Shown here: positions 11,801-54,222 of the stretch, in pieces | Layout: every line of letters begins with the position of its first letter | Position numbering within the stretch: position 1 is the stretch's first letter | Source: a virus | Taxonomy: Duplodnaviria > Heunggongvirae > Uroviricota > Caudoviricetes | Virus record (IMG/VR): IMGVR_UViG_3300025735_000005 | DNA: 64,000 nt | Strand: one strand, 5' to 3' | Made by a program: the position numbers and the translations under genes | The notes under the pieces: generated by a model | What the model was told of the DNA's origin: nothing | The model's input: only the letters and a program-made list of their open reading frames with translations | The model's database searches: none

Positions 11801-12691
11801 ATCACCAAAGAAGTAGCCAAAAGCCTGCGACATCTTGTTAAGACCAGCAGAGGCGGTAGTGGTCGTCTTTGTGAAGTCCTTATCAACACTTGCGGCCATC
11901 TTTTCAAGTTGCTGAACGAGGAGATCAGTAGTGATCTTACCGTTATTGGCAAACTGCCGAAGCTGGCCTACGCTGACATTAAGAGACTTAGCTAGTGCAA
12001 TGCCCAGATAAGGCATTTGCTCCATGACTGAGTTAAATTCTTCGCCACGGAGAACACCGGAGGCGATCCCCTGGTTCAGCTGAGTAATAGCAGCAGCAAT
12101 CGATTCTACAGAAGAACCTGAAAGTTGAGCACTCTGCTGGATCGTCTTATTCAGACGAATAATCTTTTCCTGGCTGGCACCCGTCTGCTCCAAAGATTTG
12201 CTGAGCGTAAAATACAGATCAGCATTATTCTTGAGTAAAGTGCGGGTATCTTGCGAAGTCTTAAACAAGGCTCGCTGCGACTGAGTAAGCTCTGCGGTAC
12301 CTTGCGTTACGAGCTTTAAGCGATTTCGAATATTCTCGAGATCATCGCCAACACGCGCGAAGGCAGTAACACCACGGGTGGCAACAAATGCTGCTGCAAC
12401 ACCAATAATACTACCCTTCAACAGGTTCATATTGGCTACAAGTTTGTTAGTGTCACCGGCGACGGCGCGGAGGGAGGCCGTACCAGTGGTCCCAAAAGCG
12501 CGCAACTGACGGTTAGTGCGGTCAACCTCCTGACCCACTTTCTTAAATTGATCGCTGTCTACACCGTTTAGTGCAGTACTAGCTTTATTACCTCTAAGCA
12601 CTAGATCTGCCAGCGACTTGTTAAGCTGCTTGAGATCAGACCGCGCTTTGTCAGAGCTGGTATCTACGTCAATAATAACGCCAGACATCAA
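2813..12691 (-). CDS. tail tape measure protein (3292 aa)
   Basis: Giant ORF located between tail assembly chaperones (G/GT) and minor tail genes; long coiled-coil-like Ala/Gln/Lys-rich stretches and a C-terminal Gly-rich block (GGGSSGGGIGSAIGGLFGKGSDG...GLGASGAAGLGSLAGGLFG) typical of TMPs. RBS AAGGAA 8 nt upstream of ATG. Confidence 0.8.
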   Translation of the reverse strand: MMSGVIIDVDTSSDKARSDLKQLNKSLADLVLRGNKASTALNGVDSDQFKKVGQEVDRTNRQLRAFGTTGTASLRAVAGDTNKLVANMNLLKGSIIGVAAAFVATRGVTAFARVGDDLENIRNRLKLVTQGTAELTQSQRALFKTSQDTRTLLKNNADLYFTLSKSLEQTGASQEKIIRLNKTIQQSAQLSGSSVESIAAAITQLNQGIASGVLRGEEFNSVMEQMPYLGIALAKSLNVSVGQLRQFANNGKITTDLLVQQLEKMAASVDKDFTKTTTTASAGLNKMSQAFGYFFGDINTYLGASQSLGKVFSSIADDVGFGADKIIIRLATTQRAFDNYIRSLDAFRSFRLKWQLALDFNPLSLRSQMRAQTKDAVNKIRELFKTQDQIDVPQNIIQRLFSRIKKPTKEDNRGFFDLGDTRKTVEALTDSAVQMTRSVELIARNIARSMPVIIAPMVRFRDSFGATVAKTAHDADTFVYKALLPLNRGLEGLKETLSVGFLGDNFAPRALVSLFKSKDISEFADNLTRLNNTFDGHLIRIDRVQYLIREKERLVKEFTVWPLQDVLIQLGLMDNKLVRIRDTRFDRVIEYMRLIGDMAKRAFNDLVLPDLSNFAYKAAVNVYIGLKTIRDIFSSAFSFETGKALGEALVNGVIGALKTLATVARKLLNNVANADDIGTKIGKTIVSILVGVAKTLPAFLVGVFAGVGSELVHQLQQVDYSAIFDSLKASARDGLQSFINMIRTVESYASGGLAKVERIVSNFGKTIKDVFYNIWDEVVGHSFWPDTIDDVNAYTKNLFHSQSAIEKFGDLVKSAFESVYKKIEGFGQRFGGTFRSLKLTIQDIDWGNTAKNLASSFGSVLYASFVLLRSKSTPIKFFAASYLMSIVDSATGGALTNAAPAIGQAAGVVANEFIKKLLASAMEGVALIGHAIPAMLRGIFLDALPFMEGPLNVVSNLIPIFSNSVIGALAAITIAYSKFSGKKFSDIYTTLFGNGKEGKRRKPGIAPALLEGYSGPILGQLSRVKFTSSLAKNLIDEPKFAAIAAGILSLGLTDAFGMVEAVEASLPFIAIAMFGKDGGARLLRDLTVMGSNLLAGVLGKLAKDAASVVLPAGWTARVSTWLSSPILLFRRVANQQRGPIATALAAIGDDFANMFRNIAANRERYANGELDLKSTLFKSSVVGANGPQQPQSDTNFIDSFKSLREGVSKLQISPNTSLGDFGKKLKDGVTKASSAAIRTIKGATSNLKTVLLSFSAQIFSGLRSGISGFFSAISPILSGLSSLLQNKLFLLAAAGALIVGLASTANAATGAGQAFTDLGGNIGGVVVSTLALAAAFKAVQKSVQAFKTFRSTKKDFVNDAIGGELQNYKDSLNEKRQTKLWDFDKLSKAQRMEQFGTASRGTYSAMLNKGIKEKLNSKEQELRSGVDQAATKAAWDAVTLNIRGFASRLQDLSKATVFSASWWNDRIGKLMSGETSLTDSLSNAKDRFNQTRQAGEGLKAGFSTFFGTLLGSRRASATIIIDKAIVTLRSAVGMGAGARAISGGTGPILIGGVSGAAREAGILARIFRPVGAAFRGAGFAARILGSAAGLLARGLTAVLGFFGLALGPEIIALVGAVTIATGLIAGFFGPFESFTDNIKWLGDNILGFFGMDAKSGAGKAAKLAKDFGVKDVAGQKFDIRDQLKNIDLSQVSDGQQAALQNYLQTITDTISQLNDEAMSQGGKLNDEQKRRFAKLQQDSSEMLARYPLRPGATARNIGDTIAINAADRAKPDTSLTGNLGRFIFGKGDGTGFTIWLSNMWKDIKNVFTSIGDWWEKKALPGIYTASDYVKNAIAHALNKVGDYISNSWLGRAGRAVGNKAQGAFDAVRARAQDTSVNDTKMYNEWEKQFTAKAVKNFAFLSPKQQGVFNNARAEYDQSVRTVAATNRDGQRFGEGKDDFEARRRAELQHLAKVEVAYRRISDALGVLGQKNADVKAFNDSLADFTTKTKALGTDFGTKGEKFFGGKSDVEAFKKYSDQFNKANARLNPTTDSEKAVAASDFTARRIAQQWMKSATEAADEFNKQIADRMLLGSKITQQAGALGDGANEGLLRNFAISGSKAAVEFGKASAEYLRLKTELDKAPSDATPDQLKKIADAVSEAETKMRALQPSDMSFDGINNALQKIQVPSLDMTDYINLPTDQIQALADELKDVDKASKDVRVAMDHIGDTDGPARAKTALEQLRKAAANVAATRAEADNVLTSQIAGAGAIPATLRARLINETAGLGANARALKRNAGEVSKLGSERAKLAADAASIESRISYDGKGGITGVTPAEIARLDAAKIRLDAIGERVNELGQAPKKEVKDRYGFKELLADVNEAGVEISDMGFSRLSQTSRSSLQSIASQIHGIEKQLKNATPTQDVSALLQQKADLLASMREKLVDSFDKTGKALGESLSRSGVGDQVSIEAIATNKLKQLVELDKRIQLKRLEADDVTNLEDYVAKMAQLNKLERERAKLLEDSTNSMDKYAERINSIFGTNLELFNTDLFGEQFAAYISSAAGVIKAQMAKLAAQGKASFGWLREIKQQGEYISLFNDMAQSIDDAFIRGARSAFKKIKDIIPDYGVTEQQFRRFSPEQRQSVTQSAINLDALDRAQELPNLTKPLVDIINSFNGSNQNDVMSRFRTEFEKEFKTKFDATPFESAVDRFSSAVDRFATPPVATGKAFSDTELKGIVTGLFPNARVNGLSRTQARNDQLYADGTHHRSYHVPGTEAGVSAVDVKPMAGITFKDFVKKFKDAGYSVAEAIDESRKSTAKNGGKNWHIALRNAPMVDSTEAPPIVVDGIKTKNTPLERGYSQVYDLIDQAKKSSTFTRQYGGNRKDALAASGIDRKTLDLFTPAQLQTLEQYQKRIDGLNEAILQADTAGEDTSKLAKSLQIAQGSMERFTDRVVHAGDNFRQMGEQFAQSLDKNFQDALFNAFSGKGNFFSTIFDGLAQDILHQATSAITAPITGENGVITNGIRSVFGGGSSGGGIGSAIGGLFGKGSDGINNGLFSGLFGGGDKNTVVPDVGGFASSLNIGNSLPTLDAGSGVGLFKKGGDLLGKDVLGSLDSGASTIGDTLGTGADALSGGIGDALSKGTDSLSKGISGAFSGLGASGAAGLGSLAGGLFGSLIAGFFADGGQISTTGKISGKGSDRSDSILAAVSNDEHIIKAKQARKYRKLLVAINEDKLPKFADGGIVGSSSIGSIIAVPTTSTIDEKKMPKANTSGKTEINLGITGDVTKQTKRTVYEMLPEIAAGVNAHNKEKGIK

Positions 12692-13950: not shown

Positions 13951-14026
13951 TGGCGGATCCGCTAGGGGTCGAACCTAGATTGCTGGATTTGGAGACCAGA
14001 GTCCTACCATTGGACGACGTACCCAA
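13951..14026 (-). tRNA. tRNA-Trp (anticodon CCA), 76 nt with encoded CCA end
   Basis: Minus-strand sequence GGGTACGTCGTCCAATGGTAGGACTCTGGTCTCCAAATCCAGCAATCTAGGTTCGACCCCTAGCGGATCCGCCA folds as cloverleaf: D-arm GTCC/AATGGTA/GGAC, anticodon loop CTCCAAA (U33, CCA, A37), T-arm CTAGG/TTCGACC/CCTAG; acceptor stem has one A.G mismatch and anticodon stem one T.T mismatch. Confidence 0.55.
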
Positions 14027-17915: not shown

Positions 17916-20900
17916 TTACCCTACACCGTACCAACCATAGTTATTTTCAAAGTCATACGGTACTTCTTCAAGCACTTGCTCTTGTGTTAGGATATCGTCT
18001 TCTGTAAGTACCTTACCACCAATCACAGACCTTCCTGCGACAGGCACTAGCCCTTTATCAATAGCGTCATTCAACAGCTGATCATAAATATCTTGAGGCA
18101 GACCTCTGTTTTTCATCTCATCCAGCGTCATAATGATAGGATTTTTATCCATAACCTTAGCGTAGATTTGGCGAAGAGCAGATCTGCCAGGAAGCATATC
18201 GGCAATATTAGTAAAGAAAGCGTCATGTACAGTGGAGGTAGCTACATTGTTAGCTTTACCCCAAAGATGAAACCGCTTAACAATGACAGCATCATTTGAA
18301 TGGTTTGCATTAACACCAAAAGCAGTGCCGGCTTTGATGGGATTAGCGATGTCATTGATAGTGCCCGACTTATTAAGTACTTGATCCCACCAGCTCGCTG
18401 CTGTCTTTTGTGGAATCATAAGGATATTAGTTTGCCAATTACCATCTTTATCTTTGTAAACTAAACGTTCTTCAAATGTTTGCGTGAAGGACTGATTGAT
18501 TACCTTTCCATCAAAGTTGACAGAGGGTACATAAGTCCAGCTCTTCGGCAAATCATTCATGTTGGTGTACAGTAGCGTGATTTCAGAAGCCTTTTCAACA
18601 TCCTTGAAACCAGTCACACCAAACTTTGAGGCGATATCTGCGATTGGTACGCCACCAACGCTAAGATCTAGCTTAAACAACTTTCGTCCTAGGGCACGTT
18701 CGCCTGGCTTTTCAACACCAAGGATTAGGTCTGCTAACCCACTTTCAGGCTTCCAATCAGTAAAGACCCGCTGCAGCAGTTCTGCTGTAACAGTGGTGTT
18801 TGGTGGAAGCCCTAAGTAACGCGCAAGCTCTTTACCGATAGGACCACGTCCTGGGCCTTTACGTTCACGCCCTGTCAGTGCGTATGAGGCAATTTTCTTC
18901 CAATTCAAACTGCTGTCTGATGGCTTGGCATTTGCTAGAAAGGCTTGAGCCATGCGTCTGAAGAAGGGACTAAACTCCTTTAGGATAGGCACTTGCTCAT
19001 TCAGATGGTCTGACATGATTCGGGCTACAGCTTCGAAGTCTTTAGGCGTCACGATTTCATCATACGCTTGAGACATCTTCTCTACTAGCTCGCGTGTTTT
19101 AGGCTCCAGGAACCAGAGTTCTGCCATGATTTCGTCGCCAGGTTGCTGACCTTTATTGAAGACATCTACAATATCCTTACGTAATTCGGCAAGCATGTCA
19201 GCGCCTTCTGGATCGTATCGAAGCAGACGTGCCCTCCTGGCATCAATCTCATTCAATACGGTCTGACGTTCTCCGGATGTAACCACAAGAGTATTATCAC
19301 GTTTACCGAGTACCTTACCAAGCTTTCCTTCTACATTCATGATGCCAGTTCTTTCACCAGCGCCGTAAAAGGTCACCATATTTTGGGCTTTAGCTGCTTT
19401 TTGCAGATCTTTAAGCTTCAACCCCAATCGTTCATTTAGGGTCTTAAAGCGAGGATCATTATAAGTAGCTGCAGCAATTTCGTCGTATAGACGTCGCTTT
19501 TGGCTAGTCGGAACCACGTTAGACAGTGACGCCAGTGCTCTGTTTCTAGTTGTAAGTGCAATAATCTGGGCACCCGACGATGATGCGTCCTGCTCCATAG
19601 CAAGGCCAGTCATTAGGTTATCTAGCGTTCCGCCACTTGTTACATGGTTCTCTATTTTAGCTGCTTCAATTGCAAAACGAAAGAACTTACCTAGCTCTTC
19701 ACCTTCAACTTCGGCAACAATATCGCTTTCTAGGATTGCCCTAATATCTGCAGGCCTAGCAGACAACATCTGTTTACCAATGTTTACAAGATCTGGCCAC
19801 CACTTCTCAGCGATGCGTTGCCTACCTCTGAACGTCAGACTATCATAATTACCCTCAAAGAAATCAGCTAGACCACCTAGAAAGCTTCCTATCTGATCTG
19901 TGAAGGCATCATACCCTGCTTTTCCCATTGGTTTTAGTGCAGCTGTGTTGAGGAAAGGGCGAAAGCTTTCACCACTCTGCGCTGAGATATAGCCACGATC
20001 GTAGACACGACCACGGTGGTCTACAAACGGCAGATTAGTGAACGTTTTACCGCGCAGCCATTGCATTGCTTTAAAACGTTCATAAGCATCGCCGCGAGAG
20101 GTAATATACTTACGATAATGATTAAGATCGTCATACTTCTTTGAATTACCTCTATCATCCTTAAAGTATAGAAGCTTTTCAATGAAGTTATGGAAATCTG
20201 AATCAACTGTGTACGCGGCTTTACCAGCCCAATTGAGGGCATCAGCCAAATCTTTATCTACAAAGTCACGAGTAACTTCTGAAGAAGTAATTGACTGGCG
20301 AGTGTTGTACCAGAGGCCGTTTCTTTTAGTGTAGTATGTGGTATAGCCAGGGCGAATCACCAGACCATTGTCAAAGGTGGCCGGAATACGCATACCAACT
20401 TCAATTTTACGCTCCAAAAGGCCATACTCGATTAGCCGAGGATCCAGCAGCCGGATGTAGTAAGAGACAGTATCATAGTACGGACCGAAGTATCTACCAG
20501 AGACGCTAGAACGCATTCTACGCTTTTGAACACCGAATGTATCAATGTCAAACAAATGTCCGGCCTTGCGCTCCAACAGCTTAACACCCAGCTCGTACCA
20601 ATCGCGACGATTGCCATTAAGATTTGCTGTATTATAAAGGCTTCTGCCTAGGTAAACAGCCAGAGCATCTCTATCGCTGCCCTCTCGAACCAATCTATGA
20701 GCAAACTGCTGATAAAATGATTGAAGCTGCGCATCAGATAGACGACGCTTGATCTTCAGTGGAATGCCGGGATCGAAGAAGCCTCGCAGCTCGTTTGCAA
20801 TTGTAGGAGCAACACGGTCTTCCCACTTGTTACGTGCAACAATATTATCAACTAGCCCTTTTTGGAGTTCATCAAGCTGAGTTCGACCTAGAACAGGGTC

Positions 20901-22571
20901 AATATACTCATCTTCCAGAAGCTTCTTAAGAACATCTTTATCACGGCGCAGCTGTGTTTCGATAGCATCCGAGATATTCATTACATCGAATTTCATCTGG
21001 CTATTTAAAACAGCTTTAAGGTTGCCCCAGGGCTGCCCATTCTGCCGAAAGCGGCCAATGACAATACGAAGGTTATCAGCAATAACAGAGCGCTCATTCA
21101 TACCCATCTTCATTGACAGGTCATCCATGACTTGCTTAATAAAAGCTTTATCTTGGTCTTTTAGAAGATCACTGTCATCCACACGGCGCAAGGCACCTGC
21201 GTAGACATCGCCGTTAGGCTGATAAATACGAACGTCATCGTATCTCTGTGTTAGAGGATTGAAGCGAAGCTGTTCTTCCTTTGGCGGTGTTGAAAGAACT
21301 CTATTGCGAGTCAATCGCTTATTACCAAGGTTGATACCACGGTAGGAAGTAAACGAAAGATTACCGTTGAGGTCACCTGCTTGAAGGAGGTAGTAATCTA
21401 CCAGCGTCTTGCGGATATCCTGCAGCTCCTCAGGTCTAGCAGCACCGAGTTGCATCGCGTCCAGACGTTGTTTTGCATCAGCAAATTTACGAGTATCACC
21501 AGGTACTACGTAATCGGCATCAGTAAGCTGTCGAAGCTCCTTAATACCAATATTATTACCCTTAGCATTAGTGAATTGGTCAACGGTCAATTCACCACTA
21601 TTCAACATCTCAACTTTCTTATACTCGCCAAGATGCCTCAATTGAACAGCTACGGGTTGCCTTTTGAGCCAGTCATTGTAGCTTTCCCGTAACGGCGTCT
21701 GACCATCGTAGAACTTTTTCTGTGCTTCTGTGAGCCCTTGTAGGTTTCTCCTACGGACTTCTGCGACGCTTTCCAGATTCGCGACATCTGACCAACTTTT
21801 GAAGACAGGTATGGAAGTAGAGCGACAATTCCAATGAGCTGGAGGAAGATGCTCCACATCACCGACCGGGTAGATTGTTCCATCACGATGGGCACACAAG
21901 GGAGTAGTACGGCTGTCCAAAACAGCAACGTATTGCCAACCTTGGATTGCTTTTTCGTTAGCTTTATAGACTTCATGATCAGCCTGATTATGGACAGACG
22001 TGATTGACGTTGTTACCAGCGTCTGTGATTGTTGCTTTGTAATGCTGTGAAGGTTGCCTTTACGAACAGCCAGAGCAATGTCTTGCATGCTATCACCATT
22101 AGCGATGCCACGGCGAATGATTTGCTCAATACGCTTGCGTTCATTTACAGAGACGCCCAACCAGCCTTGCTCTAGAGTCTTATCTGCGTAAAGAGGACGT
22201 TCAAGTACAACTTCTTCAGCCACACGTCTAGTCGGCCTCTGTGTGCGCCAAATCTTGCCCATCACGTTTTCTACGTTTTGATAAGCAAACGATACTTGGT
22301 CATTGAATAGATCTAAAAGCGAGCGACGCATGGTAGAATGGACTTCAGTAAAGGTATCCTGTAGCTCCTGATCTACAGCCTCTCTAAGACGTGCTAAGCC
22401 TTTGTCACTTTTCTCTGCGTCTACTACAAGCTTATCCAGACGAACAGCGTGGCCGTCAAGTACCAGTTCTACTTTACCCTGGACACGTCGTTCGTATAAG
22501 CGGATCATAGCCGCTCTATCAATAACCTTGTCATAAAGTTCAGTATTAGCATTGACGGCCTTCATTATCAT
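17916..22571 (-). CDS. fusion protein: N-terminal Mu F / SPP1 gp7-like head morphogenesis domain + C-terminal T7-like single-subunit DNA-dependent RNA polymerase (1551 aa)
   Basis: N-terminal region carries the Phage_Mu_F signature (WQYVAVLDSRTTPLCAHRDGTIYPVGDVEHLPPAHWNCRST). C-terminal region carries ssRNAP motifs: motif A AMEQDASSSGAQIIA (cf T7 DGSCSGIQHF, Asp537), motif B region MVTFYGAGERTG (cf MTLAYGSKEFG), motif C STVHDAFFTNIAD (cf HDSFGT, His811/Asp812). Confidence 0.85.
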   Translation of the reverse strand: MIMKAVNANTELYDKVIDRAAMIRLYERRVQGKVELVLDGHAVRLDKLVVDAEKSDKGLARLREAVDQELQDTFTEVHSTMRRSLLDLFNDQVSFAYQNVENVMGKIWRTQRPTRRVAEEVVLERPLYADKTLEQGWLGVSVNERKRIEQIIRRGIANGDSMQDIALAVRKGNLHSITKQQSQTLVTTSITSVHNQADHEVYKANEKAIQGWQYVAVLDSRTTPLCAHRDGTIYPVGDVEHLPPAHWNCRSTSIPVFKSWSDVANLESVAEVRRRNLQGLTEAQKKFYDGQTPLRESYNDWLKRQPVAVQLRHLGEYKKVEMLNSGELTVDQFTNAKGNNIGIKELRQLTDADYVVPGDTRKFADAKQRLDAMQLGAARPEELQDIRKTLVDYYLLQAGDLNGNLSFTSYRGINLGNKRLTRNRVLSTPPKEEQLRFNPLTQRYDDVRIYQPNGDVYAGALRRVDDSDLLKDQDKAFIKQVMDDLSMKMGMNERSVIADNLRIVIGRFRQNGQPWGNLKAVLNSQMKFDVMNISDAIETQLRRDKDVLKKLLEDEYIDPVLGRTQLDELQKGLVDNIVARNKWEDRVAPTIANELRGFFDPGIPLKIKRRLSDAQLQSFYQQFAHRLVREGSDRDALAVYLGRSLYNTANLNGNRRDWYELGVKLLERKAGHLFDIDTFGVQKRRMRSSVSGRYFGPYYDTVSYYIRLLDPRLIEYGLLERKIEVGMRIPATFDNGLVIRPGYTTYYTKRNGLWYNTRQSITSSEVTRDFVDKDLADALNWAGKAAYTVDSDFHNFIEKLLYFKDDRGNSKKYDDLNHYRKYITSRGDAYERFKAMQWLRGKTFTNLPFVDHRGRVYDRGYISAQSGESFRPFLNTAALKPMGKAGYDAFTDQIGSFLGGLADFFEGNYDSLTFRGRQRIAEKWWPDLVNIGKQMLSARPADIRAILESDIVAEVEGEELGKFFRFAIEAAKIENHVTSGGTLDNLMTGLAMEQDASSSGAQIIALTTRNRALASLSNVVPTSQKRRLYDEIAAATYNDPRFKTLNERLGLKLKDLQKAAKAQNMVTFYGAGERTGIMNVEGKLGKVLGKRDNTLVVTSGERQTVLNEIDARRARLLRYDPEGADMLAELRKDIVDVFNKGQQPGDEIMAELWFLEPKTRELVEKMSQAYDEIVTPKDFEAVARIMSDHLNEQVPILKEFSPFFRRMAQAFLANAKPSDSSLNWKKIASYALTGRERKGPGRGPIGKELARYLGLPPNTTVTAELLQRVFTDWKPESGLADLILGVEKPGERALGRKLFKLDLSVGGVPIADIASKFGVTGFKDVEKASEITLLYTNMNDLPKSWTYVPSVNFDGKVINQSFTQTFEERLVYKDKDGNWQTNILMIPQKTAASWWDQVLNKSGTINDIANPIKAGTAFGVNANHSNDAVIVKRFHLWGKANNVATSTVHDAFFTNIADMLPGRSALRQIYAKVMDKNPIIMTLDEMKNRGLPQDIYDQLLNDAIDKGLVPVAGRSVIGGKVLTEDDILTQEQVLEEVPYDFENNYGWYGVG

Positions 22572-28975: not shown

Positions 28976-29279
28976 TACGTTCGGAGATCTTATCCAGTTT
29001 AATGTTGAAGTCCGAGAAGATCTCCTTCAGCTCGACCTTCGTAACATACTGCTTTGCTAGGAGAAGCTCCAGGTTACCTACACGATCGAGACGATTGAGC
29101 AGTTCCCTATGCTTCTCATCAATGTCTGACTTAGGCATATAAGTCTCTGTCACCCTCAATTTAAAGGCATCAAAGTCCTTTCTATGCTCCTTACTATCAG
29201 CCCAAATGGTTTTCATCCACCAGCCGCCTGCGGTCGCAACCAGAGACAGTACAGCTAGCAGGATTTGCTCAGTGCTCAT
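28962..29279 (-). CDS. membrane-anchored coiled-coil protein (N-terminal TM helix; i-spanin-like topology)
   Basis: 105 aa: hydrophobic ILLAVLSLVATAGGWWM followed by charged coiled-coil segment. Confidence 0.3.
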   Translation of the reverse strand: MSTEQILLAVLSLVATAGGWWMKTIWADSKEHRKDFDAFKLRVTETYMPKSDIDEKHRELLNRLDRVGNLELLLAKQYVTKVELKEIFSDFNIKLDKISERIERR

Positions 29280-29782
29280 TAGAAGTTGAACCCTCTTGCC
29301 GTTGCCTTGCGTGCTACCCTGATTGGGTGTAGATACTCTGTAGCGTAACGAACGCCATCAGAGAAGTGTTCTACACCATCCTTCTTGTCGATGGTGGCAG
29401 TATTGGGGTTATTATCCACCCACTTAGTCCGCTCCATAGAGAGGATAAGGTTAGGACACTTAATAGGATCAAATAGCATACCTCCATGATGAAGCATGCC
29501 GTTGACAGCATTGACGCTGTCCACCATGGATGGTGCTTTATTGTGTGCCAAGCAGCGAATACCATGGCTTTCCAGAATGGCAAAGTCAGTACGCCCAACC
29601 ATAGCAGAAGTCTTGCGAGCTCTACCAGAAGGGTCTGGATAAGCAAAGATACGCCGCTTGCCGTTGTCGTAGCGCCCTTTGATTGCTACAGCCAACTGTT
29701 CTGTATCAGGATGTCCCATGAACTCATCAAGCCATTGCATCTGTTTGCCGCGATGCGCAAAGACACCAGAGGCTTGTATCAA
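29279..29782 (-). CDS. terminase large subunit, C-terminal nuclease portion (second exon/fragment)
   Basis: 167-aa ORF (track start is TTG; first ATG gives MQWLDEF... at ~29740) with RNase-H-like terminase nuclease features (IFAYPDPSG..., ILESHG, DGVEHFSDGVRYATEY); in-frame stop at 29801-29803 limits exon to <=29800. Confidence 0.55.
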   Translation of the reverse strand: MIQASGVFAHRGKQMQWLDEFMGHPDTEQLAVAIKGRYDNGKRRIFAYPDPSGRARKTSAMVGRTDFAILESHGIRCLAHNKAPSMVDSVNAVNGMLHHGGMLFDPIKCPNLILSMERTKWVDNNPNTATIDKKDGVEHFSDGVRYATEYLHPIRVARKATARGFNF

Positions 29783-30367
29783 ATTGTTCAGTAGATGGCG
29801 TTAACATCTACCCGACTATTGGAGAAGATATGTAGCAGCTTGTGCTAGATTATAGATACTGTCTTTAAAAGCCCCTAATCCTGTGTTGCAGTGTCCACAT
29901 AAAATACCACGGATGGTACCAGTTGTATGACAATGATCAACAACAGCAGCGTCGCCTGTATTATCCTGCCGACCTGCTCTAAAATGTACAGGATTACGAC
30001 ATATTGCGCAGCAACCGTCTTGCTGTTCTAAAATTGCATCGCGTTCATGAAGCTCTATCCCAAATTTACGGCGATAGTACCACTCAGCTTGCTTTTCCTT
30101 AGCGCATTGCTTGCAATAAGTCTGTCGGCCATCAGCACGTCTAGCGTGAGGGCCGAAATATTCGTAAGGCTTTTTAATTTTACAGTAAGTACAAATTTTC
30201 AATTTATATCTCCAAAGTCCGCTATATGTTACCATATAGATCAGACTATATCATCAGTTGCCTTTAGTGACTATTTCTCAAGTCCAGCACTGCCTGGCGC
30301 TTCCGTTACACTTGTAACGTACTCCCCTGCGGGATAGTCGTTGCACCTTCCTCTTACGAGGCTTGGC
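29783..30367 (-). mobile_element. intervening sequence splitting terminase large subunit (candidate group I intron carrying HNH ORF)
   Basis: Terminase ATPase ORF stops at 30368 and nuclease ORF resumes by 29800; the 585 nt between contain the HNH ORF flanked by hairpin-rich non-coding sequence (e.g. tcccgcagggga, cgttacaagtgtaacg). Confidence 0.45.
29816..30235 (-). CDS. HNH homing endonuclease
   Basis: 139 aa with CxxC...CxxC zinc knuckles and AVVDHCHTTGTIRGILCGHCN (HNH core). Confidence 0.8.
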   Translation of the reverse strand: MVTYSGLWRYKLKICTYCKIKKPYEYFGPHARRADGRQTYCKQCAKEKQAEWYYRRKFGIELHERDAILEQQDGCCAICRNPVHFRAGRQDNTGDAAVVDHCHTTGTIRGILCGHCNTGLGAFKDSIYNLAQAATYLLQ

Positions 30368-31288
30368 TCAGAGTTGTCCCATAAGGATATTCTCTGAATT
30401 CACCAGGTTTAGTATGTGGGCATACAGTTCACCCACGTTAAAGTCGATAGCTACATGCACATCCTCGTGTTCTCCCAGAGGCTCTAGCGTCTTGTTATGC
30501 TTAGCGCGTTCATAGGAGTAGAACACCATATTACCAGAGTCCATGAAGGACGCCATATATTCCGCAGCAAAGGCCCGTGGATCCATAGTACTCTTCAGCG
30601 CTACGATTTCTTCTGGGTCTAGAAAAGGAGAACCAGTATAGTCATAATGATAAGAGTTCCAGGTAGGGTCTTTCTCGTGGAAATGATGAAGCTCATGAAA
30701 GAAATCATAGCCATTAGGTGTAGAAGCAAAGACAGCACGACCAGGACTTCTAGCACCATAGCGACGTGCGTTTGCAGGAGACCAGCGGGTGCTGATGCAG
30801 GGTCGTACAATAGACTCCCAAGCAGCTTTTGCGCCAATACCCTTAGTGCAGGTGGTGACTTCGTCCCAGCCAACGAAATAATAGCCCTTACCGCGCATAC
30901 GCTGTACTGCTTCAAAAGACAGCAGGCGAAGTTCTACATTATTTGGGAGGACAAAGCGGCCTTCATCTTGGCTCGCCTTAATGGCAATTTCTTCCAGCCC
31001 CATATCCTGAGCCAGGATAGGGTAAAAGATGTCTGTAACCTGATCGTATGTCGGGGCAATAATACCTACACGTTTGTTAGGAACGTTTCTAGGTAACGCC
31101 ATAAGCTCATGCACTGCAGTTGCAGCACAGGCAGAGAGGAAGTATGATTTACCCCAGCCACGAGCACAGCATACAGACACAAAGCGGTGAGCTTGATCAA
31201 TAAAGAGATCTTCGTAAGCATCGCTCTGCCCGTAGTGGAGATCAATCACACCTGCAACTCCAAAGGGCAAGCTTCTTGGCCAGTACAA
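30368..31288 (-). CDS. terminase large subunit, N-terminal ATPase portion (first exon/fragment)
   Basis: 306 aa with Walker A CARGWGKS and Walker B YYFVGWDEV; ends with VAIDFNVGE resembling the first catalytic-Asp strand of the nuclease domain, then stops. Confidence 0.8.
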   Translation of the reverse strand: MYWPRSLPFGVAGVIDLHYGQSDAYEDLFIDQAHRFVSVCCARGWGKSYFLSACAATAVHELMALPRNVPNKRVGIIAPTYDQVTDIFYPILAQDMGLEEIAIKASQDEGRFVLPNNVELRLLSFEAVQRMRGKGYYFVGWDEVTTCTKGIGAKAAWESIVRPCISTRWSPANARRYGARSPGRAVFASTPNGYDFFHELHHFHEKDPTWNSYHYDYTGSPFLDPEEIVALKSTMDPRAFAAEYMASFMDSGNMVFYSYERAKHNKTLEPLGEHEDVHVAIDFNVGELYAHILNLVNSENILMGQL

Positions 31289-31345
31289 TTACAGCGTTTA
31301 CAAAACCAATAAGTGGGAAGCCATCGACACAGAAAGGTGCCTGGA

Positions 31346-31540
31346 TTAATCACCACAAAGCAACTCCTTAATTTCGCGCTCGATACGCTCTTTCTGCTTG
31401 CGCAGCAGCGTGAGGCGGTCCATGAGACCATTACAAGGAGCTGCCAAGCATTCATCCGTAGCGTCACAATGGCGGCAGACATAGTCAGTAGTTAGAGAAA
31501 TATCAGATACATCCACTACTACGTGTGATTTATGGATCAT
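31346..31540 (-). CDS. small Cys-rich protein
   Basis: 64 aa, CxxC...C...C pattern. Confidence 0.3.
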   Translation of the reverse strand: MIHKSHVVVDVSDISLTTDYVCRHCDATDECLAAPCNGLMDRLTLLRKQKERIEREIKELLCGD

Positions 31541-38104: not shown

Positions 38105-38770
38105 TTACCAACCTTCCATGGGAAACTCGAGATAGACCTGCGTTTGCGCCCTAAGTTCATTTGTAATAGTTTTGACCCTATCAGTGTCGCGGCTGACACG
38201 ACCGAACCAACGCCAACCAGAACCAACAGCTTTTGTACCGCTATGAAATGTTTGCCAGTCAAATTCAATTAATTGGCGATCTGGAGCTTCCCATTGTGCT
38301 AGCTTGTTTTCCTCTAGCATCTGCTTAATGCGAGTATCCCAGTCACGATATATCAACCCATTGACTTTAGGCAATTCACATTCACCCAAGGCAAATGAAG
38401 TAGGAGCTAAATGCGCATTAACCAACCCCATAATATGCCTGCTGTGGTAGGCAGGTGTATCGTAATCAGGTTGACCAGCTGTGAGAAAATGCTGGCCTAC
38501 CGGAATAGGCGGGCGTGGAACGTCATCGTGGTGATACCCTGGAATCCCAGGATACCATCCAGACATAAGCATATGAACCCTGCTATCAAATACACACGGC
38601 ACTGATAGCCAATCTTGAGGCATAGATGAGATAAAAGAGCGCGTAATAGGACCGCCCTTTTCATACGCAAATTCAAGATCTGAATTGAAGAACATAGGTT
38701 CATTCTTCACATCATCACAATATTTTGCAAAAGAATTAAGTAGATATGCACGACTGTTGAAGCTGTACAT
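38105..38770 (-). CDS. hypothetical protein (weak HxD...H 2OG-oxygenase-like pattern)
   Basis: 221 aa; YHHDD...H spacing reminiscent of Fe/2OG oxygenases but not diagnostic. Confidence 0.25.
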   Translation of the reverse strand: MYSFNSRAYLLNSFAKYCDDVKNEPMFFNSDLEFAYEKGGPITRSFISSMPQDWLSVPCVFDSRVHMLMSGWYPGIPGYHHDDVPRPPIPVGQHFLTAGQPDYDTPAYHSRHIMGLVNAHLAPTSFALGECELPKVNGLIYRDWDTRIKQMLEENKLAQWEAPDRQLIEFDWQTFHSGTKAVGSGWRWFGRVSRDTDRVKTITNELRAQTQVYLEFPMEGW

Positions 38771-39197: not shown

Positions 39198-40559
39198 TTA
39201 GAAATCCTTTGCACGATTGCGGACTTCATCGAAAGTATGCTTAACAAGCAGTTCGCCATCTCGCCACACAGGCTGCATGAGATCAACAGCATGATGCGAG
39301 AGATGATCAGTGCGAATAGCACGATATTGACCGTCGTATTCGATAACAGATTGGCGGCCAGCCTTGCTTGCCTTTTGGATGCTGCCAGTAGGCGTCTTCT
39401 GAACATCCCGCCAGCCATCGCCGTAATTAACAGCATTCATCTTCATGGCAAAGCTGAGTGTATCGCGATCGACTTTCTGAAGAAGACCACCGCCCATGCC
39501 AAATACGATATTATCCAGCGAGAAGCCGGCATGAATGATATTGCGGATAAGTTCCTCAATAGAATCCTCATTCATACCATCGCCTTGAATAACACGTACG
39601 TGCGAGTCCAGAACACGGTATCCCTTACTGTTTACAGTACCACCAAAAGCTTCCCACAACTTGTGCATGATATCGATCGATACCGTCGTAGGGTTGCCGC
39701 TATCAGGCCGAACAACAAGAGTGCCATTGCGTTCAAGAATCTCTTCCTTGAGACTATAGCACCAAGCCTTACGTACGGCACGTTCCAGGTCATAGCTATC
39801 CGAAACGATCGATACAAGACCATCAGGAAAACTCTTGAGAATGTGATGATACGCATTGTATTCGCGTTCACGTCCCCAGCTAGTAATAGTGCTGTGCTCG
39901 GCCGCAGGGATATTGAAGCCGGGCATACCAGCCTTGTAATAGTGCTGCGCATGGAGAATGCCAGCGAGGGTATCCGTGCTGCTGAAATTTAGCAAATGCG
40001 CCATGCCACCCAGAGCAGCGCTTTCCCGGCTGCTGGCACCACGAGCACCCATATCGTGCAGTTTGAATTCGATCTGGCCGTCAGGGTCATCACTGCTGAT
40101 CAACAGACCGCGATAAATGATCTTACGGCATTTTGCCGACAGCGTAGCAACCGTAGAAGGATACCATGTTGTGCGCGTCAAATCCGTGTCGATGAAGTTA
40201 GGCAGCCACGGGAAGCGTGGATCTGTGTTGACAACCTCAAATAGCGGTGTACCACAAGGAACTGCAATCCCTTCAGGCAAGGCGCGGATTTCCAGTGGTA
40301 GATAGCCCAGATTTTCCAGATCACGAAAGCCCTTATCATTAAAAGGGATGCCGTGGGCCGCGAGCACATCTGCGCATTCTTCGATCATATCAAGGTCTGG
40401 CGCATCCATACTGTCCATCAACGTAGGTTGCAGACCAAAGAAGATCATGCGATGGCTGAAATTGTTGATGCGTGCCTCGCCGTAGACAGAAGCGTACTTC
40501 ATTTCCGGCGGATACTGCATAAAGTGCGAGTGCTTATAGCTATCAACATCAAAAATCAT
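39198..40559 (-). CDS. nadV: nicotinamide phosphoribosyltransferase (NAMPT/NadV)
   Basis: Start taken at internal ATG (MIFDVDSYKHSHFMQYPP, cf human NAMPT ATDSYKVTHYKQYPP); FGMGGGLLQKVDRDT matches NAMPT GSGGGLLQK block; length ~453 aa. Confidence 0.8.
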   Translation of the reverse strand: MIFDVDSYKHSHFMQYPPEMKYASVYGEARINNFSHRMIFFGLQPTLMDSMDAPDLDMIEECADVLAAHGIPFNDKGFRDLENLGYLPLEIRALPEGIAVPCGTPLFEVVNTDPRFPWLPNFIDTDLTRTTWYPSTVATLSAKCRKIIYRGLLISSDDPDGQIEFKLHDMGARGASSRESAALGGMAHLLNFSSTDTLAGILHAQHYYKAGMPGFNIPAAEHSTITSWGREREYNAYHHILKSFPDGLVSIVSDSYDLERAVRKAWCYSLKEEILERNGTLVVRPDSGNPTTVSIDIMHKLWEAFGGTVNSKGYRVLDSHVRVIQGDGMNEDSIEELIRNIIHAGFSLDNIVFGMGGGLLQKVDRDTLSFAMKMNAVNYGDGWRDVQKTPTGSIQKASKAGRQSVIEYDGQYRAIRTDHLSHHAVDLMQPVWRDGELLVKHTFDEVRNRAKDF

Positions 40560-40560
40560 T

Positions 40561-41544
40561 TCAAAACCCCTTGTAAAAAGCCATGTGGTAGTGGTCTTCA
40601 AAGTATTGTGTTGGATGAACTGCGTGCTCATGCATCCAGCCAGCCCAGGATGCATCATCCTTACCCTGAGGCGCTGGCATGTCTACGTTGTCAGGAATTT
40701 CTATGTAAGCGGCATGAGTGATGATACGCCCTCGCAAGCTGCGTTCAGGATCATCAAAGATATGCCAACCAACAATGTATTGCGGATCGATGAGAAGTCC
40801 TGTCTCTTCCTCGACTTCTCTAAGCATACCTCTTTCGATACGCTCGTCAGGTTCAAGAAATCCTCCTGGCGCTGCATATAGGTTTTTACCTACAGCACCG
40901 CCGCGCTTGATAAGAAGTCTTTTGTCACGCCAGCGGATAATACCATCAACTGTGACAAAAGGACCAGTCCCATATTTAAGGCGATCCTTATCTACACCTT
41001 CCTTATAAGACAAGAGCTCCTTGAATGTATCCGTCATCTTGAAATGCTCAAGGAACGTCAAGGTATTTGGTGTGATGTAGGGAGCAGGGATATGAGGCAG
41101 ACGCCGAAGGTACACCTCACGAACATCGCTGGCGGAAAAGGTGCCGTAACTACTGCTAATCTGAATGCTTTCCCACGATGGAAACATATTCAGATAGTAG
41201 CTGGATTTGTCTTTGCCGTAGCCGGTCAGATAGATTATATCTTCAGGCTTGGAGCAAGAGCTGATGAGATTTTCAACGTTTTGCAGCCAATCCGCGTCGC
41301 TGTACGGGTAGTCATCAAGCGGAAGAACCTCCAACCGACCCAGTGCGTGCTCATAAGCAAAGGCGTTACTGATCAGCGATCGACGTTCTTCATATGTGAA
41401 AGGGTTCTTCGGATCTCGGGCTTTATTTGCAGAGCCAACAAGCACAATCAGCCTATCAACCTTTGAAAGAGCTTCCGAAATGACATGCGCGTGACCGATA
41501 TGCATCGGCTGAAAGCGCCCGATAAAAACGCCTATTTTGCTCAT
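40561..41544 (-). CDS. natV: bifunctional NMN adenylyltransferase / Nudix ADP-ribose pyrophosphatase (NatV/NadM-Nudix)
   Basis: N-terminal GRFQPMHIGH ((H/T)xGH nucleotidyltransferase motif); C-terminal Nudix box GGFLEPDERIERGMLREVEEETG. Confidence 0.8.
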   Translation of the reverse strand: MSKIGVFIGRFQPMHIGHAHVISEALSKVDRLIVLVGSANKARDPKNPFTYEERRSLISNAFAYEHALGRLEVLPLDDYPYSDADWLQNVENLISSCSKPEDIIYLTGYGKDKSSYYLNMFPSWESIQISSSYGTFSASDVREVYLRRLPHIPAPYITPNTLTFLEHFKMTDTFKELLSYKEGVDKDRLKYGTGPFVTVDGIIRWRDKRLLIKRGGAVGKNLYAAPGGFLEPDERIERGMLREVEEETGLLIDPQYIVGWHIFDDPERSLRGRIITHAAYIEIPDNVDMPAPQGKDDASWAGWMHEHAVHPTQYFEDHYHMAFYKGF

Positions 41545-42441: not shown

Positions 42442-42720
42442 CTATCTAGCTATGCTAAGGGTTAAGAGAATAAGACTTGTGAATATTACTGTGCCGAAGA
42501 CAATAGCTGTAAATTCATCGGTACCTCGTCCATTCTGAGAGCCACGTGGTCTATATTCCCACCCAGCGCGGTAATAGGTACCGTACTCTCCGTACGAGTA
42601 CCTCACCCTTCTCTCAGCCTTCCCTATAACTACACCATTCATAGTTGGCCTTGGCACAAATACAAAACAATTATGCCAACCGTCTGGTGGAGTTTTTCGC
42701 TTAAAACTGATATTCATCAA
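42442..42720 (-). CDS. small tail-anchored membrane protein
   Basis: 92 aa with C-terminal hydrophobic segment AIVFGTVIFTSLILLTLSI. Confidence 0.3.
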   Translation of the reverse strand: MMNISFKRKTPPDGWHNCFVFVPRPTMNGVVIGKAERRVRYSYGEYGTYYRAGWEYRPRGSQNGRGTDEFTAIVFGTVIFTSLILLTLSIAR

Positions 42721-44693
42721 AACATCAATTCATAGGCGCGGTTGTTGTCGACAATAACGGTAACAGTGTCACCACGTGCCCTTGTGAAACCAACACCTGA
42801 GAGCTGAGTTTCAGAGACTTCACATTTGGTGCGAGCGCCGAGTACTTCAAACACCTTACGATGTTCCTGAAGCTCCGGTCGGAGATCCTCGTTATAGAAA
42901 CCTCGCACAGGATCAGGGTTCTTACAACCCTTCAGCATGAAGAAGAGGTGCTTTGAGCCGAAGCCGCCTGCGCCATCCCAATGATTCGGGGAAAGTAGCA
43001 CAGTCTCTACGTCCACCAGAGTATCAGTAGAAAGGCCCCACTTCGTCGCAGAAGCACTAACAGACGGAAGGTTGGATTCAAATTTTACAGGCCTTCCGTC
43101 CTTCACTGTAACCACGACAGCGTTGACGCGCCCACCATTAGGTACTGCATTATTGTATGTATACGTCGTCACCACGCCTTCGAATTCTACATCGATATTA
43201 AAGCCAACGTCTACACTTTCGCGTCGTGTAAAATTATGTACGCTAAAGCCGTAGACACCGTCTTGCAAGCTGTTAAACGCCATATTCTCGACAGCGTCAC
43301 GTTTATGGCCGCCACCGGCGTTCATATCAACGTCTAGGATACCCATCTTGTTTCGGAAATAGATGTGCTCTCCCGAAGGCGCATAACAATGGAGATCGAG
43401 ATCATCAAAGTTGAACCACGACAACGACACACGGAAGAAAGTATCGGTGCGACCGCCCGCAGCTTTTACACGCTCCTTAACGCTGTCCTTCACATCGCCA
43501 TCGTAGGACCATGAAAAGTCATTCTGCCAATTGAACAGACGTCCGGTGCTTTCATGCTGTGGCGCCGTAATTGACACGAAATTGCCCAAGTGCTTATTGG
43601 TCAACTTCAGCTTCAATGAAGAAGCTTGTGGAAGAATAGTGTTGATGAATTGATCTGGATCAATCTTCTGTGCATGTGCCAAATCCGGAGCCTTCGCGGG
43701 CTTAACATCCAGAGCGAGCAGGTCTTCAATACCACCGCGCATCTTACCTTGCACGGCGTTGTCGACGAAGAGCACATCGTTCACAGACAAATCTTCAACG
43801 GTAGCAAAGCGTCGTTTAATCGACTGCTCCAAACCCAGTGACTCTAGCGTAGCGTTTGCCTGCTGCACCATTTTCGTAGTGATCGGAGCCGACGAACGAC
43901 GGAAGTTGCGAGGAGCCATTACAGCATCGTATGCTCGCAAGCAGGCATCAAGATCAAGTCCTTTGGAAAGATTGATCAAAAGCGTGCCGAAAGCATTGTT
44001 GCGGATCCTTGCAACGGGTGTATCACTTTGGCTCCAGGCGAATGCTTCCTTGTCGGCAGAAGCATCATAAGCCAGTTTGAAATCTCTGAACTTACGGACA
44101 GCGTTTTCGTATTCAGCGCCTCGGTAGAGTTCATTATTATTGATGAGATCGAGCGCTGTATCGAATGCTTCAATCGTCAGCTCACGAAGACCGCGTTCGA
44201 ACACTTGTGCTTTCGTGTTAAAATCGCCTCGCGCTTTATCGGCGTCTTTTGAATAATGCCGCTGAGCGATAACACCATAGAAGTGCGACCATTGCCTATT
44301 TGTATGAGCATCGTAGTTATGACGTTCGCCATACCAATTCTGCTTAGTTCTGTAAACGCTCTTGATTGGCGCTTGCAGGACAAGATCGCTCATTCGTTCA
44401 GCAACAGTCTCGTACGGCTCTGGCAGTGCGCCCAGGCCGCCCCATACTGTCATACGCTCGCCGTTATCATCAAAGGCAATAACGCCGCCCAGATTCTTGA
44501 TAAAGTTTCGGCAGGTATGACAGGTATGCTCGGTCTCTTTGCGATACAGAGGATCTGTTCCGGCAGGAAAGGCTGCCAAGTACTTCGCATACAAGTCGTC
44601 GAGATCAACCACGAAAAGCTCATTTCGCTTCATGACGTCAAAACGAGCGATAACGGCTTTTGCAAACTTATCAAACATGTTAATAATCCTCAC
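42717..44693 (-). CDS. large hypothetical protein (658 aa, GTG start in track; first ATG 44676-44678)
   Basis: Long uninterrupted ORF, no motif I can confidently assign. Confidence 0.5.
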   Translation of the reverse strand: MRIINMFDKFAKAVIARFDVMKRNELFVVDLDDLYAKYLAAFPAGTDPLYRKETEHTCHTCRNFIKNLGGVIAFDDNGERMTVWGGLGALPEPYETVAERMSDLVLQAPIKSVYRTKQNWYGERHNYDAHTNRQWSHFYGVIAQRHYSKDADKARGDFNTKAQVFERGLRELTIEAFDTALDLINNNELYRGAEYENAVRKFRDFKLAYDASADKEAFAWSQSDTPVARIRNNAFGTLLINLSKGLDLDACLRAYDAVMAPRNFRRSSAPITTKMVQQANATLESLGLEQSIKRRFATVEDLSVNDVLFVDNAVQGKMRGGIEDLLALDVKPAKAPDLAHAQKIDPDQFINTILPQASSLKLKLTNKHLGNFVSITAPQHESTGRLFNWQNDFSWSYDGDVKDSVKERVKAAGGRTDTFFRVSLSWFNFDDLDLHCYAPSGEHIYFRNKMGILDVDMNAGGGHKRDAVENMAFNSLQDGVYGFSVHNFTRRESVDVGFNIDVEFEGVVTTYTYNNAVPNGGRVNAVVVTVKDGRPVKFESNLPSVSASATKWGLSTDTLVDVETVLLSPNHWDGAGGFGSKHLFFMLKGCKNPDPVRGFYNEDLRPELQEHRKVFEVLGARTKCEVSETQLSGVGFTRARGDTVTVIVDNNRAYELMF

Positions 44694-53710: not shown

Positions 53711-53835
53711 AACCGGGCTGTTTGACGAAAGTGTCGTCAGAAGTGCCTGAAATTTGCACCTGGAGAGCCGCTGGAGACCGTTCGTCCGGCGCAGTAGATT
53801 CCCGTGCGCGCGGGTCGCCAGCAGCCCTGTCTACG

Positions 53836-54222
53836 TCAATCAACGCTAATGCACGCGGATTGTCCCTCCTTATTTTCTTGAATAAAGGTTGCCTGCAGAC
53901 GCCCAAGCAGCCCATTCTTAATCTGCAGCGAATAATGAATAACCTTACGTTCAGAACCCCATGCATCCGCCGGGAAGTGCTTTTGTACAAATTCCCAAAC
54001 AACAGCAACACGAGCATAATCCATTGGTTTTCTGAGGTTATAAAATGTTTCATCAAAGTCTCTGAACAAAATTCCTTTAACGTAGCTTTCAGGAATTTCG
54101 CCATGAGCAATATAACGCAGCAGATCAGAACGAGCGTCTTGTGGTATAACCAGCCCACCGTTTTCACTGGCAAACATACCAAGACGTTTCTTCCAAGCTA
54201 GTTCAAAGAGTGGGCTAATCAT
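53836..54222 (-). CDS. hypothetical protein
   Basis: 128-aa ORF; preferred over overlapping 53700..54182 frame which would run through the promoter motifs. Confidence 0.35.
   Translation of the reverse strand: MISPLFELAWKKRLGMFASENGGLVIPQDARSDLLRYIAHGEIPESYVKGILFRDFDETFYNLRKPMDYARVAVVWEFVQKHFPADAWGSERKVIHYSLQIKNGLLGRLQATFIQENKEGQSACISVD

Follow-up and report, generated by a model that had tools for sequence, protein, structure and literature searches.

The 64,000-nucleotide (nt) stretch of viral DNA analysed here (IMG/VR record IMGVR_UViG_3300025735_000005, Caudoviricetes; hereafter referred to as the window) carries a terminase large subunit (TerL) gene whose locus spans three consecutive minus-strand open reading frames (ORFs) between positions 29279 and 31288, as stated in an initial annotation of this DNA. 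Positions are those of the whole window, and TerL, its intron and the endonuclease gene all lie on the minus strand. ORF A (30368..31288) encodes the N-terminal part of the terminase, with the motifs CARGWGKS and VGWDEV and a match to Pfam Terminase_6N. ORF B (29816..30235; 139 amino acids (aa)) matches Pfam Endonuclease_7 (PF02945, E = 1.5e-20), and ORF C (29279..29782; 167 aa) has no Pfam match on its own. Automatic gene calls label the three as a ‘terminase’ fragment, an ‘endonuclease VII’ and a ‘hypothetical protein’. The arrangement is real and not an assembly artefact, because two independent Joint Genome Institute (JGI) metagenome contigs from different samples (L150 and L151) are 100% identical to the window across the region. 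Here we report that TerL is very probably split by a mobile, phage IA2-like group I intron that encodes a homing endonuclease of the Endo VII motif type. The locus has a ribozyme fold with canonical splice sites and a junction that stays in frame; the endonuclease motif is intact, and the element occurs sporadically, always at one site. The same kind of intron is already known from TerL of the related roseophage DSS3_VP1 (Naomviridae; Rihtman et al. 2021, PMC8323127), and the intron in the window is a new, divergent member.

A full-length match to the Rfam model Intron_gpI (RF00028; gathering score, 50 bits) covers 30450..30222 (model positions 1–253), and its score of 87.5 bits (E = 2.3e-22) is far beyond chance. 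Whole-window Rfam scans detected this single intron in the 64 kb, even with permissive thresholds. Together with an alignment to intron-less homologues, the match delimits a 651-nt intron (29780..30430) that runs from G30430, immediately after exon nucleotide U30431, to a terminal guanosine (ωG) at 29780, where the intron ends in ...AAUUUG. The initial annotation had proposed a probable group I intron of 0.58 kb. The RF00028 match, a covarying core, canonical splice sites and an in-frame junction bear out its nature, and its size is corrected to 651 nt. Moreover, the covariance-model search of the minus strand recovered a complete group I core, in which P3–P8 are present, including the P3/P7 pseudoknot, the elements on which the earlier proposal had been staked.

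The exon boundaries were placed by comparison with uninterrupted terminases, as had been suggested, and they fall at a U|...G| splice-site pair accompanied by P1 and P10. TerL exon 1 (30431..31288) encodes the ATPase domain, with the Terminase_6N match, and the first β-strand of the nuclease domain, ending in ...VAIDFNVG; it is colinear up to DFNVG with the intact terminases of DSS3_PM1, a sister phage of DSS3_VP1, and of EBPR siphovirus 1. TerL exon 2 (29279..29779) begins with ATA (Ile274) and reads IQASGVFAHRGKQMQWLDE...; it encodes the remaining nuclease domain, the role first assigned to ORF C, and is colinear with the intact homologues, which place its beginning at 29779 rather than at the ATG near 29740 favoured earlier. 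ORF A does end just after VAIDFNVGE, as originally described, but the final Glu is not a terminase residue: the exon-1 ORF runs 20 codons into the intron, and this Glu is therefore intron-encoded.

P1 (30416..30436) is formed by GUGGGU (30436–30431) and its guide GCCCAC (30421–30416), giving 6 base pairs (bp) with a U30431·G30421 pair at the 5′ splice site. A second guide, UGUAU (30426–30422), lies immediately 5′ of this one and pairs with AUACA of exon 2 (29779–29775) to form a 5-bp P10. Both helices show compensation in the other known carriers of the intron: in a third carrier, the IMG/VR contig L118, P1 reads GUCGGU/GCCGAC, with the exon GUC being a synonymous Val codon, and in DSS3_VP1 P10 is formed by exon AUCAU and guide AUGAU. 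The exons join in frame as GGU|AUA, reading ...VAIDFNVG|IQASG..., and splicing at this predicted junction would yield ...AACGTGGGT|ATACAAGCC..., with AACGTGGGTATACAAGCC as the junction-spanning string. An intein is excluded because in-frame stop codons interrupt the insert: the exon-1 frame stops 20 codons into it (30370–30368, in P4, on its 3′ strand), and stop codons also close the exon-2 frame upstream of 29800.

The catalytic core (30222..30407) comprises P3 (30407–30401/30299–30293), followed by P4, P5 and P6/P6a between the 5′ strand of P3 and P7 (30339–30335/30248–30244). P7.1 (UCCCGCAGGGGA, 30334–30323) is joined by a GUA linker (30322–30320) to P7.2 (CGUUACAAGUGUAACG, 30319–30304), P8 occupies 30292–30255, and the core closes with a P9 hairpin that has a GUAA loop (30239–30222). 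The IA2 subgroup is distinguished by the extra helices P7.1 and P7.2 joined by G-U-A (PMC3428280). Both helices lie, G-U-A linked, between P7 and the 3′ strand of P3 in the window intron, which has no P2; the assignment to IA2 uses this criterion and no formal subgroup-specific model.

In each of the three TerL introns (window, DSS3_VP1 and L118), the core helices are all paired, with double changes. P3 differs among them at four of its seven pairs, and P4, P5, P7.2 and P9 change on both sides, yet all stay paired. A covariance model built on these three introns retrieved 131 full-length copies in 100 sources among the contigs listed, and a single copy in the window. Across the 131 lineage members, 95.1% of cells are in standard pairs, as compared with 39–43% when the partners are slid as a control; changes on both sides occur at 46 of the 47 pairs, and the covariation score is 0.62, as compared with 0.05–0.11 in the slid controls. 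P7.1 and P7.2 both covary in this alignment, whereas P7 is uninformative for covariation because it is invariant. Furthermore, a model-free minimum free energy (MFE) fold of an ORF-deleted mini-intron recovered P1, P3–P6, P7.1, P7.2, P8, P9 and the terminal hairpin, with a z-score of −4.4 and none of 200 shuffles folding equally well. Introns of this lineage abound in viral metagenomes: their 19-nt core signature, AAGGTGCAACGACTATCCC, occurs in at least 120 IMG/VR viral contigs (L028–L147). Several signature contigs, such as L042, L069 and L089, carry three or more intron copies inside a few kilobases.

Joining the exons would restore a normal two-domain terminase in which, as predicted by structural modelling, an ATPase domain is followed by an RNase H-like nuclease domain. 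The spliced protein (~440 aa) gives one continuous match to phrog_2 (terminase large subunit) over residues 7–430. None of the 95 positions that show no variation among 38 homologues is changed in it; D269, D322 and D414 are among these positions. These three residues are putatively catalytic, D269 being so assigned on the basis of its invariance and position. In the AlphaFold2 model of spliced TerL (predicted local distance difference test (pLDDT), 88.9; predicted template modelling score (pTM), 0.76), the G273|I274 junction is the turn between a strand at residues 264–271, which contains D269, and a strand at residues 274–283. The model agrees with the earlier view of VAIDFNVG as the first nuclease strand with a catalytic residue, and it places the intron four codons past the probable first catalytic Asp of the nuclease. 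Foldseek matched the model to full-length terminases of D6E (E = 1e-16), T4 (gp17), Sf6 (gp2) and HK97, and to the isolated nuclease domains of P22 (TM-score 0.68), SPP1 and G20c. A PDB sequence search with the spliced terminase as a single sequence gave no match, and as a profile it matched the ATPase domain only. An hhalign comparison with T4 gp17 reached 42% probability and is seemingly one β-strand out of register at the start of the nuclease, and the catalytic Asp was not assigned from it. At the other end of the gene, 31288 is only the limit of the ORF; TerL probably starts at GTG 31249 (preceded by GGAG at 31261–31258) or at TTG 31270, the choice of the JGI gene caller. GTG 31249 shares bases, as GTGA, with the TGA stop codon of a 78-aa ORF that lies upstream (31246..31482); this ORF is rich in Cys and Trp and appears to be non-coding.

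The same arrangement could in principle represent a split terminase, in which exon 1 with a 20-aa tail and a remainder starting at ATG 29740 are translated separately and assemble unspliced. Gene callers annotate the locus in this way, including in the GenBank record of DSS3_VP1, and the exon-1 ORF has its own stop codon. We nevertheless consider separate translation highly improbable, given a complete, covarying ribozyme whose splice sites restore the frame exactly. A Shine–Dalgarno (SD) sequence is absent before both ATG 29740 and TTG 29782, the break falls inside a β-hairpin four residues past D269, and the product from ATG 29740 would be devoid of nuclease strands β1 and β2. In addition, the terminase is a single polypeptide in 118 of the 120 best homologues. 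The initial annotation, too, had ranked an intron above a split terminase, and its preference is upheld by the missing exon-2 ribosome-binding site and by the absence of the catalytic first β-strand from the downstream fragment.

The intron encodes an endonuclease whose gene (29816..30202) probably starts at TTG 30202, yielding a 128-aa product. This start is preferred because the SD sequence GGAG (30213–30210) lies 7 nt upstream and because it aligns with the ATG of the DSS3_VP1 gene, whereas the alternative in-frame ATG at 30235, which would give 139 aa, has no SD sequence and lies inside the P9 stem. The protein matches phrog_2633 (endonuclease VII) and is 59% identical to the intron ORF of DSS3_VP1 and 55% identical to that of L118. 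It contains a complete Endo VII motif (C65xxC68, D89, H90, H92, R98, C102xxC105, N106) at residues 65–106 of 128, in its C-terminal half. Its best PDB match is the restriction enzyme Hpy99I (E = 1.2e-7), and T4 Endo VII is far weaker (E = 0.05). The enzyme had at first been taken for an HNH endonuclease, a classification that we revise to the Endo VII motif (His-Me finger superfamily, PF02945): no Pfam HNH-family match was found even at E ≤ 1, and a BLASTP comparison with I-PfoP3I, a classic HNH enzyme, gave E = 0.18, that is, no sequence relationship. The two kinds of enzyme are related at the level of the His-Me finger superfamily only. F-CphI defines the DHHRN homing endonucleases with an Endo VII motif, and Hpy99I belongs to the same ‘endonuclease clade’ (Fang et al. 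2018, PMC6083498). By its motif and its Pfam and PHROG matches, the endonuclease in the window is assigned to this DHHRN/F-CphI type; its activity, target and homing are predicted from these relationships. Like the members of that family, it has the pattern CX2-4C...D-H-x-H...R...CX2C-N in its C-terminal half, whereas the motif is N-terminal in the T4 Endo VII resolvases. Intron-encoded members of the family are known in phage DNA polymerase genes. F-CphI itself differs in being free-standing beside a psbA intron, while the gene in the window lies within a terminase intron and is likened to it by motif and by Pfam and PHROG matches.

Phages commonly encode homologues of the endonuclease, in most cases as free-standing ‘endonuclease VII’ genes. 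Free-standing homologues (37–38% identical) adjoin the terminase genes of the cyanophage Pf-WMP3 (38309–38689) and the Leptolyngbya phage LPP-2, and these may be homing endonucleases that also target terminase genes. PfWMP3_35, which is named in the DSS3_VP1 record, is one such Endo VII-like gene (37% identical to the intron endonuclease). Its equation with I-PfoP3I proved wrong: I-PfoP3I is PfWMP3_13 and is unrelated to the intron endonuclease, as the BLASTP comparison indicates. A second Endo VII-like tblastn match in the window (53805–53912) was weak and was dropped in the absence of Pfam support. Introns of the lineage in L077, L072, L029, L080, L145 and L044 (and, on the other strand, L142, L085 and L082) also contain an Endo VII-like ORF, which is 33–43% identical and stops right before the signature formed by the P6 3′ strand and J6/7; it thus sits in the P6 loop and not after P9. 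The occurrence of one endonuclease family in different loops of one intron lineage suggests that the endonuclease invaded these introns independently.

In the window, the whole core (30430–30222) lies upstream of the endonuclease ORF. The RNA-like sequence first noticed around the ORF is therefore a real ribozyme, but it does not flank the ORF symmetrically, the ORF following a complete core. A P9.1-like long-range helix (29814..30220) pairs GGACUUUGGAGA (30220–30209) with UCUCCAAUAGUC (29825–29814); its 5′ strand holds the endonuclease SD sequence GGAG, and its 3′ strand covers the last codons and the stop codon of the ORF. The pairing recurs at the same relative position in the window, DSS3_VP1 and L118 despite unrelated sequences, with duplex energies of −15.9, −17.8 and −19.3 kcal/mol, respectively, as compared with about −11 ± 2.9 for shuffles. 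The ORF thus appears to be looped out of this helix, each duplex being moderately significant when taken singly. The 3′-terminal domain (29780..29811) consists of the hairpin GUAGAUG-UUAACGC-CAUCUAC (29811–29791), followed by UGAACAAUUUG, which ends with ωG 29780. DSS3_VP1 and L118 share this layout, with a covarying stem of different sequence, a UAACG-containing loop, and UGAACA followed by 4–5 nt and G.

The distribution of the intron provides a natural control. A megablast search of the region against 50,697 phage genomes returned no close relative, just a 36-nt core match. DSS3_VP1 contains a 680-nt insert at the identical GGT|ATH boundary (Rfam, 93.9 bits), and L118 a 679-nt intron at the same site. 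By contrast, DSS3_PM1 has an intact 446-aa TerL, although its exons are 96% identical to those of DSS3_VP1. Rfam scans of DSS3_PM1, of EBPR siphovirus 1 and of L004–L006, the closest IMG/VR relatives that were scanned, detected no intron. None of the 24 IMG/VR relatives, whose identity reaches 74%, is interrupted. The same holds for 118 of the 120 best protein clusters in the database, which are full-length proteins; the two exceptions are the exon-1 ORF of the phage itself and a fragment on a short 1.3-kb contig. The closest intron-less relatives retain a near-identical candidate homing site, ATCGACTTTAACGTGGGT|ATCCAAGC, and the intron-less candidate target in L004 and L005 reads ATCGACTTTAACGTGGGTATCCAAGC.

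The endonuclease co-occurs strictly with the terminase intron and is absent, flanks of ±3 kb included, from all 26 intron-less loci (DSS3_PM1, EBPR siphovirus 1 and the 24 IMG/VR relatives). This pattern bears on whether the endonuclease is a recruited packaging cofactor, akin to HK97 gp74, an HNH protein by which terminase cleavage is stimulated, or instead a selfish homing enzyme. Its free-standing relatives do often adjoin terminase genes, PfWMP3_35 lying between terminase and portal, and the LPP-2 match is annotated ‘recombination endonuclease | terminase’. The gene in the window, however, is located inside the intron, and because 26 orthologous terminase loci do without the endonuclease, packaging in this lineage is independent of it. 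Furthermore, the protein groups with F-CphI and Hpy99I in the endonuclease clade that has the Endo VII motif (PMC6083498), and not with Pfam HNH. A role as a packaging cofactor is thus extremely unlikely, and the absence of the endonuclease from every intron-less locus examined supports the earlier preference for an intron over a gp74-like cofactor.

Several points weigh against the reading of the locus as a splicing, mobile intron. Splicing, both here and in the DSS3_VP1 homologue (PMC8323127), is a prediction from sequence. P10 is weak in L118, with only about 3 bp. The covariation alignment was fitted to the model, and the lineage members were gathered by an exact 19-nt pattern that spans the 3′ strand of P6, J6/7 and the 5′ strands of P7 and P7.1; these columns are therefore invariant by ascertainment. 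As for mobility, the terminase and endonuclease identities in the three pairs of carriers are 54/59%, 55/55% and 69/71%. Because the two divergences run in parallel, a long shared residence, inherited vertically and lost many times, is no less plausible than homing that is recent or still active, and present-day mobility is a prediction from the sequences. The exons of DSS3_VP1 and DSS3_PM1 differ asymmetrically around the insertion site, with 46 of the 50 mismatches upstream (nearest at −4, −16 and −34) and four downstream, the first at +251, which could reflect a co-conversion or recombination tract. The difference at −4 (GTG versus GTC) lies inside P1 and the likely homing site.

As splicing is predicted from sequence, it is conceivable that the intron is a decayed relic that no longer splices, or that it needs a host or phage factor, the terminase being non-functional in a defective element; some Bastillevirinae introns splice in vivo yet not in vitro (PMC11878797). 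Against this, the core helices are all intact, as are J6/7, J8/7, ωG and the U·G pair; the exons retain 95 of the 95 invariant columns, and the endonuclease retains every catalytic residue. The surroundings form a complete head and packaging module, and the identical sequence is present in two samples. Decay is therefore very unlikely, and we favour a functional intron.

We propose the following scheme for such an intron. The gene would be transcribed as a single precursor mRNA, in which the core from P1 to P9, upstream of the ORF, folds. An exogenous guanosine would attack after U30431, at the U·G pair in P1; P10 would then align exon 2, and the freed 3′-OH of exon 1 would attack after ωG29780. 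Ligation as GGU|AUA would restore a single frame encoding an ATPase–nuclease terminase of ~440 aa. The loop of P9.1 would encode the DHHRN/F-CphI-type homing endonuclease. In a mixed infection, terminase alleles that lack the intron would be cut or nicked by this enzyme close to ...GACTTTAACGTGGGT|ATHCA..., and recombinational repair from an intron-bearing genome would copy the intron together with the endonuclease into the site (homing).

We also considered whether the intron is more than a passenger, with the folded, splicing-competent RNA silencing the endonuclease and GTP-dependent splicing gating the late terminase according to timing or energy. A ‘molecular on-switch’ has been put forward for the Bastillevirinae introns (PMC11878797). 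A very old, stably retained intron would fit, because the endonuclease and terminase divergences are nearly proportional over the three carriers, and the folded RNA would silence the endonuclease because its SD sequence is buried in the P9.1-like helix and its alternative ATG in the stem of P9. We regard such a regulatory role as unlikely.

The core precedes the ORF, as it does in the window, in the intron of T4 nrdD (sunY) and in further phage IA2 introns whose ORF is 3′-located. The ORF of nrdD-type introns lies in the loop of a peripheral P9.x element, which puts the 3′ splice site far from the core. The likeness to T4 nrdD is one of layout, and the two introns differ in the host gene (nrdD versus terminase) and in the enzyme, which in T4 is the GIY-YIG-like I-TevII.

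DSS3_VP1 remains the closest counterpart. Its intron is inserted at the same site to the nucleotide (after the GGT of DFNVG and before ATH), has the same core layout, including P7.1/P7.2 and the lack of P2, and is 82% identical in the core at the nt level. It also places the ORF, which encodes the orthologous endonuclease, after P9 and ends with a 3′ hairpin and a UGAACA...G tail. In contrast, the host terminase of DSS3_VP1 is only 54% identical to that of the window, P8 is much longer in the window (38 nt), the P10 and P9.1/P9.2 sequences are unlike, with compensating changes, and the endonuclease starts with ATG there and with TTG in the window. A further difference from DSS3_VP1 is that, in the window, P9.1 coincides on its 3′ strand with the final codons of the ORF and on its 5′ strand with the SD sequence.

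The I-PfoP3I intron within cyanophage Pf-WMP3's DNA polymerase gene is a proven self-splicing IA2 intron that encodes a homing nuclease (PMC3428280). It resembles the window intron in its IA2 features, having no P2 and a G-U-A-joined P7.1/P7.2, whereas its ORF begins in P6a and overlaps core helices, its host gene is a DNA polymerase gene and its endonuclease is unrelated in sequence. Group I introns inside terminase large-subunit genes are also present in Bastillevirinae (SIOphi), where splicing has been shown (PMC11878797), and in the Pectobacterium phages phiTE and CB7. These differ from the window in terminase family, insertion site and endonuclease type, the Bastillevirinae enzymes including VSR-like ones. 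phiTE and CB7 share with the window a 100% identical 36-nt stretch (30221–30256, from the P7 3′ strand to P9). phiTE (JQ015307, 107125–112160) has a split terminase too, phiTE_206 and phiTE_208 being separated by the HNH endonuclease gene phiTE_207; its endonuclease, however, is an rv5-like HNH enzyme encoded upstream of P7, and its insertion lies much nearer the N terminus.

For annotation, the three gene calls would represent one terminase gene and a mobile intron, and the spliced 1.3-kb coding sequence is the one to use in terminase phylogenies and marker-gene surveys. The window extends the DSS3_VP1-type terminase intron to a second phage lineage and brings its sequences to three, with compensatory changes that pin P1, P10 and the P9.1/P9.2 3′ domain. 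It also represents another case of homing elements that target DNA encoding catalytic motifs, here four codons past the first Asp of the nuclease. The finding opens no new question.

Other features of the window lie outside the TerL locus. The phage carries, as DSS3_VP1 does, a nicotinamide phosphoribosyltransferase gene (39198–40658, minus strand; phrog_448, E = 6e-149), and a minus-strand gene at 42717–44693 encodes a 658-aa protein that matches phrog_1735 (function unknown; E = 1.5e-216). A tRNA-Trp gene (anticodon CCA; 13951–14024, minus strand) located between structural genes is the sole other Rfam or ARAGORN match in the window. Two very large ORFs (2813–12691, 3292 aa, and 17916–22571, 1551 aa; both minus strand) share the strand of the head and packaging genes, and DSS3_PM1 has a comparable 7.7-kb gene annotated as ‘host specificity protein J’.

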